Of a stretch of DNA of 29,373 bases, positions 3 through 9,698 are shown in pieces. Every line of letters starts with the position of its first letter. The first letter of the stretch is position 1. Position numbers and translations under genes: made by a program. The stretch comes from Flavobacteriales bacterium (GTDB lineage Bacteria > Bacteroidota > Bacteroidia > Flavobacteriales_D > Sanyastnellaceae). The notes beneath the pieces were generated by a model that saw nothing but the letters and a program-made list of their open reading frames with translations, was not told the DNA's origin and did not search any database. The DNA is taken from NCBI GenBank assembly GCA_011524845.1, contig WTJL01000169.1, forward strand, positions 1 to 29,373, given 5' to 3'.

Positions 3-3000
3 GGTGCGGAGGATGCCACAACGCCTGCCGCCCAGCACCCCTCCTCTGTGTGGGGCGCTACGGATGCTACTCTGCAATTCGTGGGTGGTCCTGGTTCGAA
101 CGTCGTAGTGGACGACGCAACAGGTGGTGCATGGTACACCCCGTTCCCCGGCATTGATGCTGCTGGATCTCATGCAGCTTTTGCTGGTGAGGACCTGCGC
201 GTCTTGGTGGCTCAATTCACCACAGCCGGCACGATGAGCGGACAACTTCAAGTCCAAGTCTTCGTGGAAGGTGACCAAGGCAACGAATTCCGTGACACCT
301 TGCCCTTGTGCACTGGCGACGGAGAATGCGGTGGTTGCACCGACGAAGATGCTGAGAACTACGATTCTGAGGCGCTTTACGACGACGGTTCTTGCCTGTA
401 TGGTGTGCCCGGCTGTACCGATGAAACAGCCTGCAACTACAACGCCGAAGCCACGAACGACGATGGCTCTTGTGAATACATCGCCGAAGGTGCATGCGAC
501 TGTGCCGGCAACGTGCTCGACGAGTGCGGTGTGTGTGGCGGTGAAGGCATCGCCGAAGGTGCTTGTGACTGTGACGGCAACGTGCTCGACGAGTGCGGTG
601 TGTGCGGTGGCGACGGCATCGCCGAAGGTGCATGCGACTGTGACGGCAACGTGCTCGACGAGTGCGGTGTGTGTGGTGGATCAGGTGTGGATGCCGACAT
701 GGATGGCATCTGCGACGACATCGACGACTGCGTAGGCGAGTACGACGCTTGCGGAATCTGCAACGGCCCCGGCGCCATCTACGATTGTGGATGTGAAGGC
801 ATCGCGGAAGGCGCATGTGACTGCGATGGCAACGTGCTCGACGAGTGCGGTGTGTGCGGTGGCGACGGCATCGCGGAAGGTGCGTGTGACTGCGACGGCA
901 ACGTGCTCGACGAGTGCGGTGTGTGCGGTGGCGAAGGCATCGCGGAAGGCGACTGCGACTGTGACGGAAACCAGCTCGACGCCTTGGGCGTGTGTGGCGG
1001 TGACTGCACTGCTGACGCCGATGCCGATGGCATTTGCGACGACGTTGACGAGTGCGTTGGCGAATACGACGAGTGCGGCATCTGCAACGGTCCCGGTGCG
1101 ACCGGCGACTGCGGTTGCGACGGCATCGCAGAAGGCGATTGCGACTGTGACGGAAACCAGCTCGACGCCCTCGGTGAGTGCGGTGGAGACTGTGCGGCCG
1201 ACGCAGACGGCGACGGCATCTGTGACGACGAAGACGATTGTGTCGGTGCATACGACGAATGCGGCGTGTGCAACGGTGATGGCATTGGCGAAGGCGAGTG
1301 CGATTGCGACGGCAACGTGATTGATGCGTTGGGTGAATGCGGCGGAGGATGTGCTGCAGACGCCGACGCGGACGGCATTTGTGACGATGTGGACCCATGT
1401 GTGGGTGAGATCGACGAGTGCGGCATTTGCAACGGTCCTGGCGCCGTGTACGACTGCGGATGTTCAGACATTCCAGCCGGCGACTGCGACTGCGAAGGCA
1501 CGGAATTGGATGCCATCGGCGAGTGCGGCGGTGACTGCAACGCTGACGCGGATGCCGACGGCATTTGCGACGACGAAGACGACTGCTTGGACGTGAACCA
1601 AAACGGCACCTGCGACGACGAAGAAACAGGTGACGATTGCTTCCACGACAGCGACGACGACGGCATCGTGGACTGCGAAGATTCTTGCCCATTTGGTGAC
1701 TTCGACAACGACGGCATCTGTGACGCCGAGGACCCATGTGTGGGTGTGGTCGACGTCTTGGGCATTTGCAACGGCCACTGTTTCTTCAACGTGGACGGTG
1801 ACTTCATTTGTGACGATGTGGACAACTGCATTGACACGGAAGCTTGCAACTACAACGATCCTTCCAACGGTGAGTGCTTGTACCTCGACACCTGCGGTGT
1901 CTGTGGAGGTCCTGGCGACGTGTACGAGTGCGGCTGTGCCGACATTCCTGCCGGCGACTGCGACTGTGAGGGCAACCAGCTCGACCAGTGCGGCGTGTGC
2001 GGTGGAGACGGCACGTCTTGCCTCGGCTGCATCGACGCGGAAGCTTGCAACTACGACGAGACTGCCACCATCGACGATGGCTCTTGCTACTTCGCCGACC
2101 AGTGTGGCGTGTGCGACGGTGACGGCACCTCTTGCTTGGGTTGCATTGACGCGGAAGCCTGCAACTACGACGAGACTGCCACCATCGACGATGGCTCTTG
2201 CTACTTCGCCGACCAGTGTGGCGTGTGCGACGGTGACGGAACATCTTGCCTCGGTTGCACCGACAGCGGAGCATGCAACTACGACGAGACAGCCACCATC
2301 GACGACGCGTCTTGCTTGTACCTTGACGAGTGCGGCGAGTGTGGTGGAGAAGGCACCCTCGGTTGCACGGACGAAATGGCCTGCAATTTTGACGCCGACG
2401 CCGACTGCGACGACGAGTCTTGCCAGTACAACGACGCGTGCGGCAACTGCGGCGGAGACGCCTACGCAGGTTGCACCGATGAAATGGCCTGCAACTACGA
2501 CGCTGGTGCAGGATGCGACGACGAGTCTTGCTTGTACTTGGACGAGTGCGGCGAATGCGGCGGTGAGGGAACCCTCGGCTGCACAGACGCAGAAGCCTGC
2601 AACTACGATGCGGACGCTGACTGTGACGACGAGTCTTGCTTGTACAACGACGTCTGCGGAAACTGCGACGGCGACGCGTACGCTGGTTGCACCGACCCTG
2701 CAGCCTGCAACTACGACGCAGGAGCAGGTTGCGACGACGGTTCTTGCTTGATGACCGACTGCATGGGCAACTGTGGCGGTGGCATCTTCCCTGAAGGATG
2801 TCAGTACCCTGAGTCTGAGCTCTACGGTCGCGAATTGGCGGTGTTCTCTGAGTGCGAAAGCGGCTTCGAAAACGGAAGCGTGGTGGTGCTCGAATCCAAC
2901 AACACCATTGTTCAGTACGCCGACGGTGCTTCCCTCGTGGTGGGTACTTGGTCTTACGACGAGTGCCTCTGCGCAGCAGGCATGGACGCGTTGCTCATCG

Positions 3001-6000
3001 ACCTCTACTTGCCACTCGATTGCGAAGCATTCCAGTTGGCAGTGGACGGTGACGGTGTCATCAGCCAGAACGACCTCGACGAATGCGATTGCGGCGTCGA
3101 AATCATCGACAACGAAGAGTACTTCTGCTCCATCGACTTCTTGGACGATCTCGAAGAAGAAGTGTCTGTGGAATGTGCAGAAGACCTCCCCACAGGTTGC
3201 GACCCTGAGTTCGCTGCCGTGGACACGTGCACGGATGAAATCTTGGTGTGTGCCTTCAACGACGGCATGACCGGATACACGACCTACGACGTGATCACTG
3301 CTGAAGGCCCTGGCGCCGACGCAGCGATTCGCATCTACGGTTTGAGCGCTCAGACCGACTGCTTGAGCGACTACTTCGTGGAAGACGAAGCCAACCCCTT
3401 GACGTTGTCTGTCTTCAGCAACGGAACGGCTCGTTTGACGGGTGTGGTTCACAACGACGTGACCCCCTCGATCACCTACGCAGTGGACATGCAGTTCAAC
3501 CACGGCCAAGACGCCGACGAGTGGTTGGCTGAAAGCCCTGCCCACGGTCTCTTGACCAACTGGCAGTGCGACATCGATCCTGCAGCGATTGACGTGTACG
3601 ACATGGTGAACACGCTCTCACGCCTCACGCGTTTGGACGAAAGCCATGAAGGAGAAGTCATCTTCTTGAACCACATGCCTGTGTCTCTCAACAAGCGTTT
3701 CCAGCTTGGTGTGGGAGGAAACAACCACAACTGCAACGACGGCTTCGGCGGTTGGTTCGGTTGGGAAGGTGTGTTCAACGGTGAGCCTGTGGCCGGTTTC
3801 TCTGGCGACGTGATTGCCGATGTGACCAACCCTGTGTTCTTCGACACCTTCTGCGGAGACGAGTTTGTTCAGGCCACGTACGGTGTGTTCAACCTCGCCG
3901 AAAACTCTGCCGAGACGGTGACCCAGACGTTCTCTGTGAACGACACGCAAGCGCCTGAGTTTGTGTCTTGCCCTGAGGACATCAGCATCGAATTGTCTGC
4001 CCTCGAGTGCGGCAGCTTCGACGCCATTGACGCCATGTTCCCCGTCCCCTGCTTGGAGACCACGGACAACTGCGCCAACTGGGATCCGATGTACGAAGGT
4101 TGCAACGAGCCAGCGAACGCTTGCGGCTCTGTGACATTCACTCAGATCAACAGCCAGATCGACGACTGCCCCTTCATCATGGTGGTGGAGCGTCAGTGGG
4201 TGGCCAACGACGGTTTCAACACGACGGTTTGCACACAGACCATCACAGTGACCGACACAGAAGGTCCAACCTTCACGGCCAACGTTGAAGACACCTTGTC
4301 TTGCGACGACTTGAACGAAATGAAGGCCACTGCCGACGATTGTTCTGGTGTGGTGAGCTTGACGTTCACCCAAGACTTGCAGAGCGGCACATGCAGCAAC
4401 CCTGGCAGCGTGTCTCGTACCTACACCGCCATTGACGGTTGTGGCAACGTGACCACGTTCGACCAGATCCTCAACGTGATCGACGAAGAAGCACCTGTGG
4501 TGATGGCTTCTGAGGTCTTTGTGGACTGCGACGCCTACAGCTCTTCTGAATTGTACCCACTCATCATCACCGACTGCGCGCTTCGCGAGTGGACGGAAGG
4601 TGAAGACGGCGTTTGGACTTCAACGTTCAACGAGAACTGGTCCACCATCTACGACGACATCAACTCTCCAGTGGAGGTCGAGTGGACGGACTCTATGCCA
4701 GTGTTGGGCGAGGGCACGTGCTACACGGTGACCCGTACGGTGACAGCCACAGACAACTGCGGCAACGCCACCACGATGAGCTACCCCATCAACATCAGCG
4801 ACACCACTGCCCCTGTCATCACAGCAGCGCCTGTGTTGAACATTGAGTGCAGCGCTTACTTGGGAGACAGCTTCCAAGGCGACGATGTGGTTTCTTACGC
4901 AGTGACTGCTCCTAGCGGAAACGGCGTGGGATCCTCTGTGGAGATCAGCGACGAATCCAACGATTGGTTTGGCCAAACGTCATTCCAGGTGGAAGACGAT
5001 TGCACATTCAACGACCTCTACGCCGCTGGCGGAGGAGCCGTGTCTGTGACTTGGCAGGACGAATACACAGAAGGTGAAACCTGTGCCGGTGCAGTGTACA
5101 CACGTACCTACACAGCCACAGACGCATGCGGCAACTCTGCCTCTGCCACCCAAACTGTGATCATCGTCGACAACTCTGCGCCTACGTGGAACGAAGGCTT
5201 CTACATGGAAGTCGTCGCGTGCGAAGACGCAACGGAAGAGTTGATGAACGACGCGAGCCACTTGCCTCTGTACGAAGCCATGGACAACTGCGACGACGAC
5301 CTCGAATACACGGTCTCTGCAGTGTTGACCAGCGGCGGATGCATCGGTTCTTGGCACCGGACGTGGACGGCCACGGACGACTGCGACAACGCTTCTCAGT
5401 TCGAGCAGACCATCATGGTCTACGACAGCATCGCACCTGAGTTTGTCTACTTCCCTGCGGACACCGTGATGGAAGTGAACAGCTTCTGCGACGCCAACTA
5501 CATCGTGGAAGTGACCGGTGGTGAGCCAACGGCACAAGACAACTGCGACATCTGCTTCGACCAAAACCTCGAGATCTCCTACGTGGAGGTGACGAGCGTG
5601 GATTGCGGTGAAGACGCAGCAAGCGGATCACGCACCGTGACCCGCACGTGGACGGTGACCGACCAGTGTGGCAACTCTACGTCACGCGACCAGGTCATCA
5701 CGATCGAAGACAACCAAGCACCAAGCTTCAACGAAGCGTTGCCTGGCGACATGACCTTGGAGTGCGCTGCCGACGACGCAGCGGTGTTGACGGCTTCTGA
5801 CAACTGCTCTGACGTGGAGGTGATCTTCACTGCAGACACAGTGGCCGGCGACTGCCCCAACCGTTACACGGTGACGCGCAACTGGTACGTTGAGGATGCC
5901 TGCGGCAACAGCAACAGCCACCAGCAAATCATCACCGTCATCGACGAAACGGCACCCATTTTCAACGAAGAGTTGCCGCAAGACATGACGTTGGATTGCA

Positions 6001-9000
6001 CGCACCCTGAAGCAGCGGTGTTGACGGCATTTGACAACTGCACGGACGTGACTGTGGAGTTCGAGGAAGCCATCGAAGCTGGGGACTGCCCCAACCGCTA
6101 CACGGTGACGCGCACTTGGACTGCAGCCGACCTCTGTGGCCACGTGACTTCGCACACGCAAGTCATCACGGTCATCGACGAAACTGCACCTACAGGTACA
6201 GCTCACCCCGTGATTGTGGACTGCGCGGAATACCGCGACTTCCCTGACCAGCTCTTCGGCGACGTCGAAGCGATGGACAACTGCGACGACGACGTGACCA
6301 TCACCTGGAACGTGGACGCGGACAGCCTCTTGGGCGTGAACGCTGAAATCAACGTTCCTGCGTCAAGCACAGGTTGCTACACCATCCTCCGCACGTACAC
6401 GTTGACGGACGACTGCGGCAACAGCACGGACATCGAGCAAATCATCACCGTGGAAGACAACACCGCGCCGATCTACCAGGGCCCAGGAGAGATCTCCATC
6501 CCTGCAGAGCAGTACGACGTGGAAGGTGCTTACCCACCGGACGTGATTTGGGCTTACCCCCTCGACTCTGAGTGGGACAGCTTCCCAATCGGATACATCG
6601 ACGACTGCAGCGGGTTCTTCACTTGCACTGCAGAAGATTACCCGATCTCAGGTGGATGTGCCAACCAGCCACACCCCATGTACAACGGTCAATCGGCCAC
6701 GTACTTGCGTGTGTTGACGATCACCGACTTGTGCGGCAACTCGTCAACGGCTGAAGTCATCATCAACTTGATCGACGACGACGCTCCAGTGTTTGACTTC
6801 GTTCCTGAAGACTACACGGTGTCTTGCGCGGAGGACGTGGTGCTCCTCGACCCCATCTACTCTGACCTCGTGGACGAGAACTTGGATGTGGACTACGAAG
6901 AAGCCACCATGAACCTCGGATGCGAGCACAACTACTTGTTGATTCGCCACTGGACAGTGACTGACAACTGCGACAACTCTGTTGAAGCAGAACAAATCAT
7001 CACGGTCAAGGACGAAACTGCGCCTAGCATCGACGCTGAGGCTCAAGACATGACCATTGAGTGTGCTGGCGCATTCAGCAACGACGAAGCCTTGGCCCTC
7101 TGGTTGGCCGACCTCGGCGGAGCTGAAGCTTCAGACAACTGCAACGGCGACCTCTCTTGGAGCATGAGCCCAGCAGTCCCAGCCTTGAGCGACGATTGCG
7201 GCAACACAGGCTCTGTGACGGTGACCTTCACTGCCACGGACGTGTGCGGCAACGCAAGCAGCACCACGGCCACGTTCACGGTGGAAGACACCACGGCTCC
7301 TGTCATCACGGCAGAGGCTGCAGACGAAACCATCGAGTGCGGAGACTACAGCTACATCGTGCAGGTTGAACAGACCATCCAAGTGGAAGAAATCATCCAG
7401 GTGGAGCAAGAAGTCATCTCCGAAGACGAAGACGGAAACGAGATCATCGACACCATCTTGGTGGACCAAATCATCCTGGTCGATGCCATCATCCTCGTGG
7501 ACTCTACCATCACGGTGACCGACGCTGAAGAGTTTGCTGCTTGGTTGGAGACCCGCGGTGGAGCCACGGGTGCCGACGACGCTTGCGGCGACGTGACTTG
7601 GAGCACCATCCCCGCCAACCCAACGTTGAGCGATGGATGCGGTGAAACTGGAGCAGTGACGGTGACTTGGGTGTTGACCGACGAGTGCGGCTTGACCGAC
7701 AGCACGACGGCCACCTTCACCATCGAAGACACCACGGATCCTGAATTCACCATGGTGCCTGAGAACTACACTGCAGAGTGCAGCGACGAACACCCCTTGG
7801 ACATGGCGCAAGCCACGGACATCTGCGGTGTGGTGGACATCACGGTGGACGCGGACACCACGTACGCGAACTGTGCCAGCAACTACGTTGTGACGCGCAC
7901 GTTCACGGCAACGGACGCTTGCGGAAACCAAGCCACTGCCCAGCAGTTCATCACCATCCAGGACACCACAGCGCCTCAATTCACTGAGGATCTGCCTGGA
8001 GACGTGACGCTCGACTGTGCAGCAGACGACGCAGCTGTGTTGACGGCTACCGACAACTGTTCTGACGTGGAGGTCATCTTCACTGCAGACACGGTCGCCG
8101 GTGACTGCCCCAACCGTTACACCATCACGCGCATGTGGTCCGTGGCCGACGAGTGCGGCAACGCCACAAGCCACACCCAAGTGGTGACGGTGGTGGACGA
8201 AACTGCACCTGTCTTCAACGAAGAGTTGCCTGCCGACTTGACGTTGGATTGCTCCGCAGACGACGCAGCGGTCTTGACCGCCTCTGACAACTGCTCTGAC
8301 GTGGAGGTCATCTTCACTGCAGACACCTTGTTGGGTGATTGCGCCAACAACTACACGATCACGCGCATCTGGTCTGTGACGGACGACTGCGGCAACAACA
8401 CCAGCCACACCCAAGTGGTGACGGTTGTCGACGACGAAGATCCAATGTTGTCTGGTACGCCTACCGACAACAACGGTTCCCTCGAAGTGCCTTACGACAG
8501 CTACTGTGGTGAAGTCACGGTGCCTGCGATTGCAGACATCATGGCCATGGACAACTGTGGAGACGCGACCGCATGTGACATGGAGGCCAACGAGGCCGCC
8601 AACGCCATGATCGCGGACGCACTCGGCGCAGATGTGTTGGGCGCAGACGGTCACCTCGACTACTTGACTGGTGTGACCACCAGCGGCATCAACAACCCGT
8701 TCGTGACGGGTGGGGCCTACACGTTGGGCAGCATCACCACACCAGCCACGTTGCTGGACGGTGAAACCTGCGACAACAACCCCAACCAGCACGGCATGCG
8801 CATGTTCAACTTCGCCGGCGGCGAGTACTACATGACAGACGCGGGTGCCATGACGAAGGACCTCGAGAACGGCACGGCCACCATCTCCATGACGGTGTCG
8901 AACGACTTGGGTGCATTCGAAGTGGAAGCCACGTTCGGTACGTTGATGAACTGGGAAGAGTGGTGCGCGACACCAGGTCTCGAGAGCTACAAGTCCGACT

Positions 9001-9698
9001 GCGGCTTGGGCGATCACATGACGTGGGATTACGCCATCCTCCTCGACGGAACCATCACGGGTGTCGAAGGAACGGCCTTCGAAGGCACGGAGCTCGCCAT
9101 GAGCCACCAGCCTGCGAACCAGTACTTCGGATTCCAGTTTGGTGTGGGTGCCAACAACAAGAACGCCTCTTACGGCTTCAGCGGTTGGTACTACTACGGC
9201 GGTACGTTGGTGATCGACGGTGAGGAAAGCAGCGCCATGGGCTCTGGTGACCTCTTCGGTGACCTCGACTTCTTGCAGGCTTGGGAGACCACGTTCCACT
9301 ACTGCGCAGTTGACGCATGCGGAAACGACGTGTCTTACAGCTACAGCCTGACCAGCACGGGTGAATTGCAAGACCCACTCCTCGATGGAGGTGTTGAGGG
9401 TGAGCAAGATGCCGAAGCCACGTACGTCAAGGATTTGATCGAAATCACGACACTCTACCCGAACCCCGCTTCAACACAAGCCGTGTTGACCGTGGAGGCG
9501 AAGGAAGATGTGAGCGCCAAGGTCCAAATCTTTACGATGGACGGGACCCTCGTTGAACAGGTGTTCGACGGACAACTGTACGAGGGATGGCCAACGACCT
9601 TGGAGCTCGACGTAAACAGCTTGGAGTCTGGTCTGTACCAGATCCGAGTGAGCTCGAAGGACTTCGTGACGACGAAGAAGTTGCTCGTCATTGAGTAA
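3..9698 (+). CDS. Giant T9SS-secreted, acidic Cys-rich repeat protein (5'-partial, >=3231 aa): Cys/Asp repeats, TSP3-like DxDxDG motifs, ~18 HYR-like units, C-terminal T9SS type A sorting domain
   Basis: The frame is open from nt 3 ([18 protein letters not shown]...), so the listed GTG at 48 is not the true start. Repeats: GCTDxxACNYxxxAxxDDGSC, [16 protein letters not shown], DADxDGICDDxDxC, then ~78-110 aa units ending TRxWTAxDxCGNxSxxxQxITVxDxxAP. The C-terminus (~9438-9695) TLYPNPAS...VQIFTMDG...[11 protein letters not shown]...TKKLLVIE has the typical Por/T9SS CTD pattern. Confidence 0.93.
480..1007 (+). repeat. Intragenic tandem repeats, 69-nt (23-aa [21 protein letters not shown][DE]G) units in two triplets
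   Basis: Units start at 480, 549, 618 and 801, 870, 939 with high DNA identity (e.g. ggcaacgtgctcgacgagtgcggtgtgtg recurs in the first five). Confidence 0.95.
2025..2366 (+). repeat. Three 114-nt (38-aa) tandem units [21 protein letters not shown]...DxCGxCxG
   Basis: 2046-2125 and 2160-2239 are an identical 80-nt stretch at offset 114. Confidence 0.93.
3129..9360 (+). repeat. Array of ~18 HYR-like (Ig-fold, Cys-containing) units; first and last are split by an inserted domain
   Basis: Recurrent AxDNC ... TRxWTAxDxCGN ... QxITVxDxxAP signature counted by eye. Four closely similar 78-aa units at ~5710-6177 and ~7962-8429. Confidence 0.8.

Follow-up and report, generated by a model that had tools for sequence, protein, structure and literature searches.

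What is the domain that occurs twice in a giant, secreted surface protein of a marine and so far uncultured Flavobacteriales bacterium, at both ends of a long array of repeated units, and what could it do there? The question is raised by contig WTJL01000169.1 (assembly GCA_011524845.1, family Sanyastnellaceae), of which positions 1 to 29,373 of the forward strand were analysed; this whole stretch is called the window here. Both copies of the domain lie inside one open reading frame (ORF) on the forward strand (3..9698), which encodes 3231 amino acids (aa) in the window and has an open 5' end, cut by the contig edge. The ORF is a clear member of the HYR_4C-array proteins that occur among the type A cargo of Bacteroidota's type IX secretion system (T9SS). 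The Pfam hidden Markov model (HMM) for HYR_4C (PF23237) matched it in eight stretches with 126.3 bits against a cut-off of 27, and a T9SS type A C-terminal sorting domain was found at aa 3151-3229 (9453..9689, forward strand, as all features below unless stated otherwise) by PF18962 (Por_Secre_tail; 37.6 bits, cut-off 27) and by the NCBIfam model TIGR04183 (38.3 bits, cut-off 23). A first-pass annotation, made from the letters alone, had proposed that two segments at about 3300-3825 and 8780-9270 are copies of an uncharacterised domain, each nested inside a split HYR-like unit, and that they serve as ligand-binding, possibly glycan-binding, heads at both ends of a spacer.

The two segments do share one domain. 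When aa ~1050-1300 were compared with aa ~2850-3116 by BLASTP with composition-adjusted statistics, an alignment with 29% identity over 157 aa was obtained at E 1e-11, and all of the motifs that had been listed for the pair were present in both copies: a stretch of 13 residues, the dipeptide EW, a stretch of 33 residues and a terminal motif that reads SGDVIADV in one copy and SGDLFGDL in the other. The proposed bounds are also close to the cores of the beta-barrels predicted for the two copies (see below), which extend over 3273..3839 (aa 1091-1279) for copy 1 and 8787..9263 (aa 2929-3087) for copy 2. About 16 HYR_4C-like units, recognised by Pfam and by a unit HMM of our own, lie between them (aa 1369-2813; 4107..8441), so that the two copies bracket the array as had been described.

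The unit HMM was built from 19 canonical 78-aa units of the window protein and its paralogs. Around copy 1 it matched aa 1050-1078 with unit positions 5-30 and aa 1299-1318 with positions 60-78, and around copy 2 it matched aa 2843-2858 with positions 19-34 and aa 3091-3113 with positions 45-67. With the flank profiles described below, the halves of the first host unit can be placed at aa ~1050-1078 (3150..3236) and aa ~1284-1318 (3852..3956), and those of the second at aa ~2814-2858 (8442..8576) and aa ~3091-3125 (9273..9377), the last of which carries an AVDACGN motif. Each of the four half-unit matches is weak alone (E 0.04-0.44), while the hosts spliced in silico matched the unit HMM at E 1.3e-3 and 3e-5. 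The third cysteine is missing from the host of copy 2 and the CGN motif from the host of copy 1.

The decisive support for the nesting comes from the family as a whole. Two-copy representatives of at least 1400 aa provided 44 usable copies proximal to the N-terminus (N-type) and 45 copies near the C-terminus (C-type), and profiles were made of the 55 aa downstream of these barrels and, likewise, of their upstream flanks. The downstream profile corresponded to unit positions 40-78 for the N-type (E 6e-14) and to positions 39-76 for the C-type (E 8e-15), and the upstream profile to positions 1-45 (E 5e-6) and 1 to about 40 (E 7e-7), respectively. In sequence, the flanks correspond to the two halves of one HYR_4C unit, in register, and the spliced hosts and the family-wide profiles agree with the nesting that had been read from the window. 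This places the insertion point in the loop that precedes the third cysteine of the unit, with each copy inserted between about positions 38 and 42 of the 78 aa. The same arrangement of unit positions 2-43, barrel and unit positions 42-78 repeats several times in the representatives P0016, P0011 and P0027, and the C-terminal half of a unit follows the barrel directly in 112 of the 228 barrels that have room on both sides.

Barrels were also found back to back without a host unit, in P0003 (nine copies), P0014, P0062, P0064, P0078, P0089, P0093, P0109 and more; in P0003 they co-occur with PA14, GLEYA and Laminin_G_3 domains. Since tandem barrels exist without an HYR host, the barrel is an autonomous domain, able to fold by itself, that was captured as an insert. 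A genome from another family of the same class (G135; loci L020 and L025) encodes two barrels in one 3893-aa ORF with other sequence in place of the HYR half-units, the first barrel standing about 50 aa after the signal peptide.

The HMM suggested by the first-pass annotation was built from the two window copies and searched against 1.84 billion representative proteins, where it matched 833 protein clusters with E<=1e-3, of which 471 had E<=1e-10. With this profile, eight copies were detected in the genome to which the window belongs, an incomplete one of 1.8 Mb (70% complete). A search for loci with the two-copy alignment returned only four near-identical loci in metagenome-assembled genomes (MAGs). 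Five of 401 sampled Bacteroidota genomes carry the domain: the window's own, all three others in its family and one of 12 in one other family. Among the best eight candidates per genome, these five have two to eight matches each, with 6-8 in each of G087, G103 and G107 from the window's family, in ORFs of up to about 3900 aa. Few members of the domain family are named, and all of those are from Bacteroidota; the close relatives are proteins of 2900-3350 aa from marine MAGs, including Crocinitomicaceae TMED45, Flavobacteriales UBA1112 and other uncultured Flavobacteriales.

The barrel segment is unannotated in all 70 relatives listed, whose names are either hypothetical protein or "T9SS type A sorting domain-containing". 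There was no match to the barrel in Pfam at E<=10, in NCBIfam at E<=1 or among the sequences of the PDB, whether a single sequence or a 46-sequence profile was used, and with the profile only the overhanging flanks matched PDB entries (the sorting domain of Mirolase and a domain of a bacillolysin). The ESM Atlas gave no usable match for the barrel, and a literature search returned no paper on "HYR domain" together with type IX secretion, or on HYR_4C or PF23237. The domain is therefore uncharacterised, as had been supposed, and represents a genuine family that is absent from current libraries. It comprises 833 protein clusters or more, most of which are giant surface proteins from marine Flavobacteriales that are uncultured, and it deserves a name and a family model. 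A C-type barrel with 91% identity was also found on a 2.9-kb contig (CAZGQI010000139.1) labelled as an uncultured Comamonadaceae bin; because all other named relatives are Bacteroidota, this label is probably a binning error.

The copies fall into two ancient subtypes, one proximal to the N-terminal side of the HYR array and the other in the final unit, directly in front of the T9SS sorting domain. In 43 of the 45 cases, the distance from the end of the C-terminal copy to the end of the protein is 123-153 aa (median 136), and the start of the N-proximal copy varies between residues 3 and 1508. When the 89 copies were placed on a maximum-likelihood tree, the N or C label required only three changes, compared with a mean of 30 when the labels were shuffled, and none of the 500 shuffles was as low. 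This separation, together with the fixed position of the C-type, indicates that the duplication is ancient and that the bracket layout has been conserved. A recent internal duplication can be ruled out, as the window copies are only 29% identical and belong to separate ancient subtypes. The window copies follow the same division, with the N-type HMM scoring higher on copy 1 and copy 2 being C-type. In 64 of the 151 representatives listed, N-type and C-type copies co-occur one to one, each at its own end of the array, and the motifs K.DCG and lDCC are specific to the C-type.

A set of residues is conserved in both subtypes. In the numbering of the structure model of copy 2, in which residue i is residue 2917 + i of the window protein, these are Q128 and G130 (100%), G141 (99%), W145 and D166 (96%), N134 (93%), W91 (92%), W70 (91%), P120 (90%), H118 (85%) and N137 (83%). 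The conserved residues centre on a hairpin, FQxGxGANNxN...GxSGWF.

Further copies were observed in the window's own genome. At least two giant paralogs stand in tandem on contig C61 (L009, 1-12695), one complete at 1913 aa and the other, which is interrupted by an assembly gap of N, of at least 1460 aa. Their layout is that of the window protein, from the N-type barrel through the HYR array and the C-type barrel to the sorting domain, and in the complete paralog the N-type split unit directly follows the signal peptide. Contigs C102 and C239 encode divergent barrels directly after the signal peptide (L010:1679-2215(-) and L011:4798-5334(+), respectively).

The fold was predicted with AlphaFold2 in two separate runs. 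Model 1 (m6b2e9490719d) covers copy 2 alone (aa 2918-3097) and was made from a 46-sequence alignment, and model 2 (mc5fecf4a2634) covers copy 1 with its host unit (aa 1040-1325) and was made from a separate 25-sequence alignment. Model 1 is all beta and had a mean predicted local distance difference test score (pLDDT) of 89.7 and a predicted template modelling score (pTM) of 0.85; model 2 had a pLDDT of 87.4, with values above 90 across the barrel and 67-83 in the host part, and a pTM of 0.83. In an exhaustive comparison with VIA-align, both models matched the same 8-stranded up-and-down barrels (3dzm, 4rlc, 1p4t, 2f1t, 8ah9 and 4xin) at Z 8-10, over model residues 12..178 for copy 2 and 52..240 for copy 1. 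For model 2, which includes the host unit, the list of matches was taken up by barrels. Copy 2 reached Z scores of 8.0-8.8 and copy 1 of up to 10.3, with a root mean square deviation of 2.7-3.8 A over 110-140 residues and 2-13% identity (at most 7% in the top rows), and the highest score (Z 10.3) was reached by a de novo designed barrel, 6x9z. The domain is thus predicted to be a closed up-and-down (meander) beta-barrel of about 175 aa. Chance or compositional similarity in place of a discrete domain has practically no probability and is ruled out by the E-value of the pair, the size of the family and the confident independent folds.

The matched structures include membrane barrels (the Thermus outer membrane protein 3dzm, the N-terminal domain of OprF, NspA, OmpW and OprH) as well as soluble ones (LpqH, YceI/TT1927b, BcnA, BcnB, the barrel lobes of hemophilin, HpuA and TbpB, streptavidin and Diels-Alderases). 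The lipocalin-, avidin- and YceI-like soluble barrels scored Z 5.5-8 at 5-13% identity, which is near background, since models without a clear relative typically peak at Z 7-8 in VIA-align, and there was no profile match to them. Foldseek against the PDB gave no confident match to a characterised domain (best E only 0.03, template modelling score 0.24), and when its top 1000 chains were rescored, the best Z was 7.2, with mainly streptavidin and avidin at about 6. The fold matches define an architecture and no family relationship. Compared with generic 8-stranded barrels (OmpA/OmpW/NspA, streptavidin/avidin, YceI, LpqH and the hemophilin/HpuA/TbpB lobes), the strand arrangement is alike, but the window domain is larger, at about 175 aa, and has one more strand at its N-terminus and an excursion of 30 aa that includes a helix. 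Unlike the membrane barrels of the OmpA class, it is taken to be soluble and extracellular; a membrane-embedded OmpA-like barrel is ruled out by the tandem arrays and because the domain sits, at each end of the fibre, within Ig-like units that are secreted.

The architecture of the protein recalls the RTX adhesins, in which ligand-binding domains have been recognised by their budding from Ig-like split domains, a criterion that was used successfully (PMC12077191; also PMC10865825). As in the fibrillar adhesins of this type, which are exported by the type I secretion system (T1SS), e.g. AhLap of Aeromonas hydrophila and FrhA of Vibrio cholerae, a complete foreign domain breaks into a small beta-sandwich unit of the stalk, which would complete its own fold after it, and the stalk of the giant surface fibre is made of extender units that are nearly identical and stand in long arrays. 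The window protein shows this split-domain design, with a complete foreign domain budding from an Ig-like extender and the same domain also occurring alone in tandem. It is not itself an RTX adhesin, because RTX repeats were absent from the Pfam and NCBIfam scans and, in place of a T1SS signal, RTX roll and retention module, a T9SS sorting domain is present. It differs further in that the host is a 4-cysteine HYR_4C unit, in that the insert is a new beta-barrel family and not a carbohydrate-binding module (CBM), PA14, vWFA or RTX roll, and in that the array is bracketed by two inserts that are paralogs, of which one is at the expected cell-proximal end. By analogy, the window protein would work like the RTX split-domain design without being a member of that group. 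Within the HYR_4C arrays of Bacteroidota T9SS type A cargo, only the stalk units and the sorting domain are described by the Pfam model and the source annotations, and not the inserted barrel. The domain family is thus new while its fold is common, and it follows a known design principle in a different secretion system and has an unusual bracket layout.

Because the domains that bud from split domains in RTX adhesins are ligand-binding modules, we suggest, with slightly better than even confidence, that the barrels serve for binding and reach out sideways from the axis of the fibre. Each barrel would bud from its split stalk unit and project to the side, and W70, W91, H118, P120, Q128, N134, N137, W145 and D166 around the hairpin could form the candidate site. 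This interpretation is favoured by the tandem barrels found elsewhere, by the co-occurrence with PA14, GLEYA and Laminin_G_3 and by the conserved set of Trp, His, Gln, Asn and Asp residues. The distal N-type copy would contact the environment, and the C-type copy would have its action near the surface of the cell: it lies about 60 aa before the sorting domain in the window protein and should therefore be at the cell-proximal base after T9SS anchoring, and not at the tip. If this is so, the split-domain rule, by which the budding part is the working part, may hold beyond the RTX adhesins of type I secretion and extend to Bacteroidota fibres that are secreted by the type IX route, and the two barrels would be defined fragments with which to find out what these abundant particle-associated bacteria stick to.

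The idea of heads at both ends can be kept only in part. Display by loop insertion at both ends of the array was found, but the role of a head is doubtful, as the C-terminal copy should be cell-proximal and copy 1 is preceded by about 1050 aa of other repeats, rich in Cys and Asp, which are distal to it. Glycan binding by a head seems plausible for the N-type copy and questionable for the C-type copy.

Several observations weigh against a binding role. No similarity to a known lectin, CBM or other binding family was found in Pfam, NCBIfam, PDB sequences or with Foldseek, and the fold scores are at or just above background. The fold searches listed meander barrels and not jelly-roll CBMs, although the library lists are not exhaustive of CBM and lectin families, and the predicted fold is not a sandwich of the kind typical of lectins or CBMs. 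Among the conserved residues, many are Gly or Trp, which could have a purely structural role, and the divergent N-terminal copies of C102 and C239 lack H118, P120, W145 and D166 while keeping Q128, G130 and N134, so that their site could be degenerate or re-purposed. A cell-proximal binding module would also be unlike the RTX adhesins, whose modules sit distally, and a role at the base, in anchoring or in pairing would suit the position of the C-type no less well.

This last point leads to a division of labour, in which the C-type barrel would aid export or docking to the outer membrane or lipopolysaccharide, or would act as a basal pivot, and only the N-type, if either, would bind external ligands. 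The fixed distance of the C-type from the protein end beside the variable start of the N-type, the antiquity and distinctness of the subtypes and the C-type-specific motifs all speak for such a division. However, the same polar and aromatic set is conserved in both subtypes, and there are also barrels that stand in internal tandem arrays or at a great distance from a sorting domain. To our knowledge, T9SS cargo in general does not require a domain of this kind, and we regard a division of labour as unlikely. The bracket layout itself, with one subtype distal and the other fixed beside the sorting domain, differs from the layouts of known adhesins and may hint at a function at the base. It could instead be that N-type and C-type barrels bind each other, giving head-to-tail fibres or meshes, or closing one molecule into a loop. 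The strict one-to-one co-occurrence at opposite array ends would suit mutual binding, but the conserved surface motifs are alike and not complementary in the two subtypes, the N-type is often far from the N-terminus and the multi-copy tandem forms do not fit a pairwise clasp, which makes this proposal improbable. Only a little more credible, and still rather remote, is a wider form of it, in which the distal N-type of one fibre and the basal C-type of another form a matched pair or share a bridging ligand, or in which the C-type is a new non-covalent docking module that acts with the sorting domain. A matched pair would mean that T9SS megaproteins assemble into a mesh or head-to-tail cables on the cell surface. 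Lastly, soluble barrels of enzymes and carriers among the fold matches (Z 5.5-8), together with the conserved His, Gln, Asn and Asp, could suggest a small enzyme or small-molecule carrier with a hydrophobic or cofactor ligand in its cavity, comparable to Diels-Alderases, allene oxide cyclase, YceI, avidin or hemophilin. However, these structures match no better than background, at 4-13% identity, and repetitive surface fibres and tandem arrays with PA14, GLEYA and LamG are a context typical of adhesion, not catalysis, so there is little probability of an enzyme or carrier here.

Other parts of the window protein were also noted. Between the N-terminal half of the second host unit and barrel 2 there is an Ala/Gly-rich linker of about 70 aa (8577..8786). 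In the alignment of C-type upstream flanks, it is present in the close relative P0002 only and is missing from most relatives, i.e. it is lineage-specific. Distal to copy 1, about 850 aa (aa ~100-950; window 300-2900) consist of short Cys/Asp-rich repeats, among them CTDxxACNYDxxAxxDDxSC, for which a whole-protein Pfam scan gave no match at E<=0.01. The neighbouring genes are housekeeping genes only and give no hint to the function of the barrels. Some of the stalk units matched the NCBIfam model LapB_rpt_80 (61.7 bits for the whole protein in three stretches, the best at aa 2403-2439, window 7200-7330), which gives a weak sequence link between the stalk units of this T9SS protein and the repeats of T1SS LapB-type proteins.

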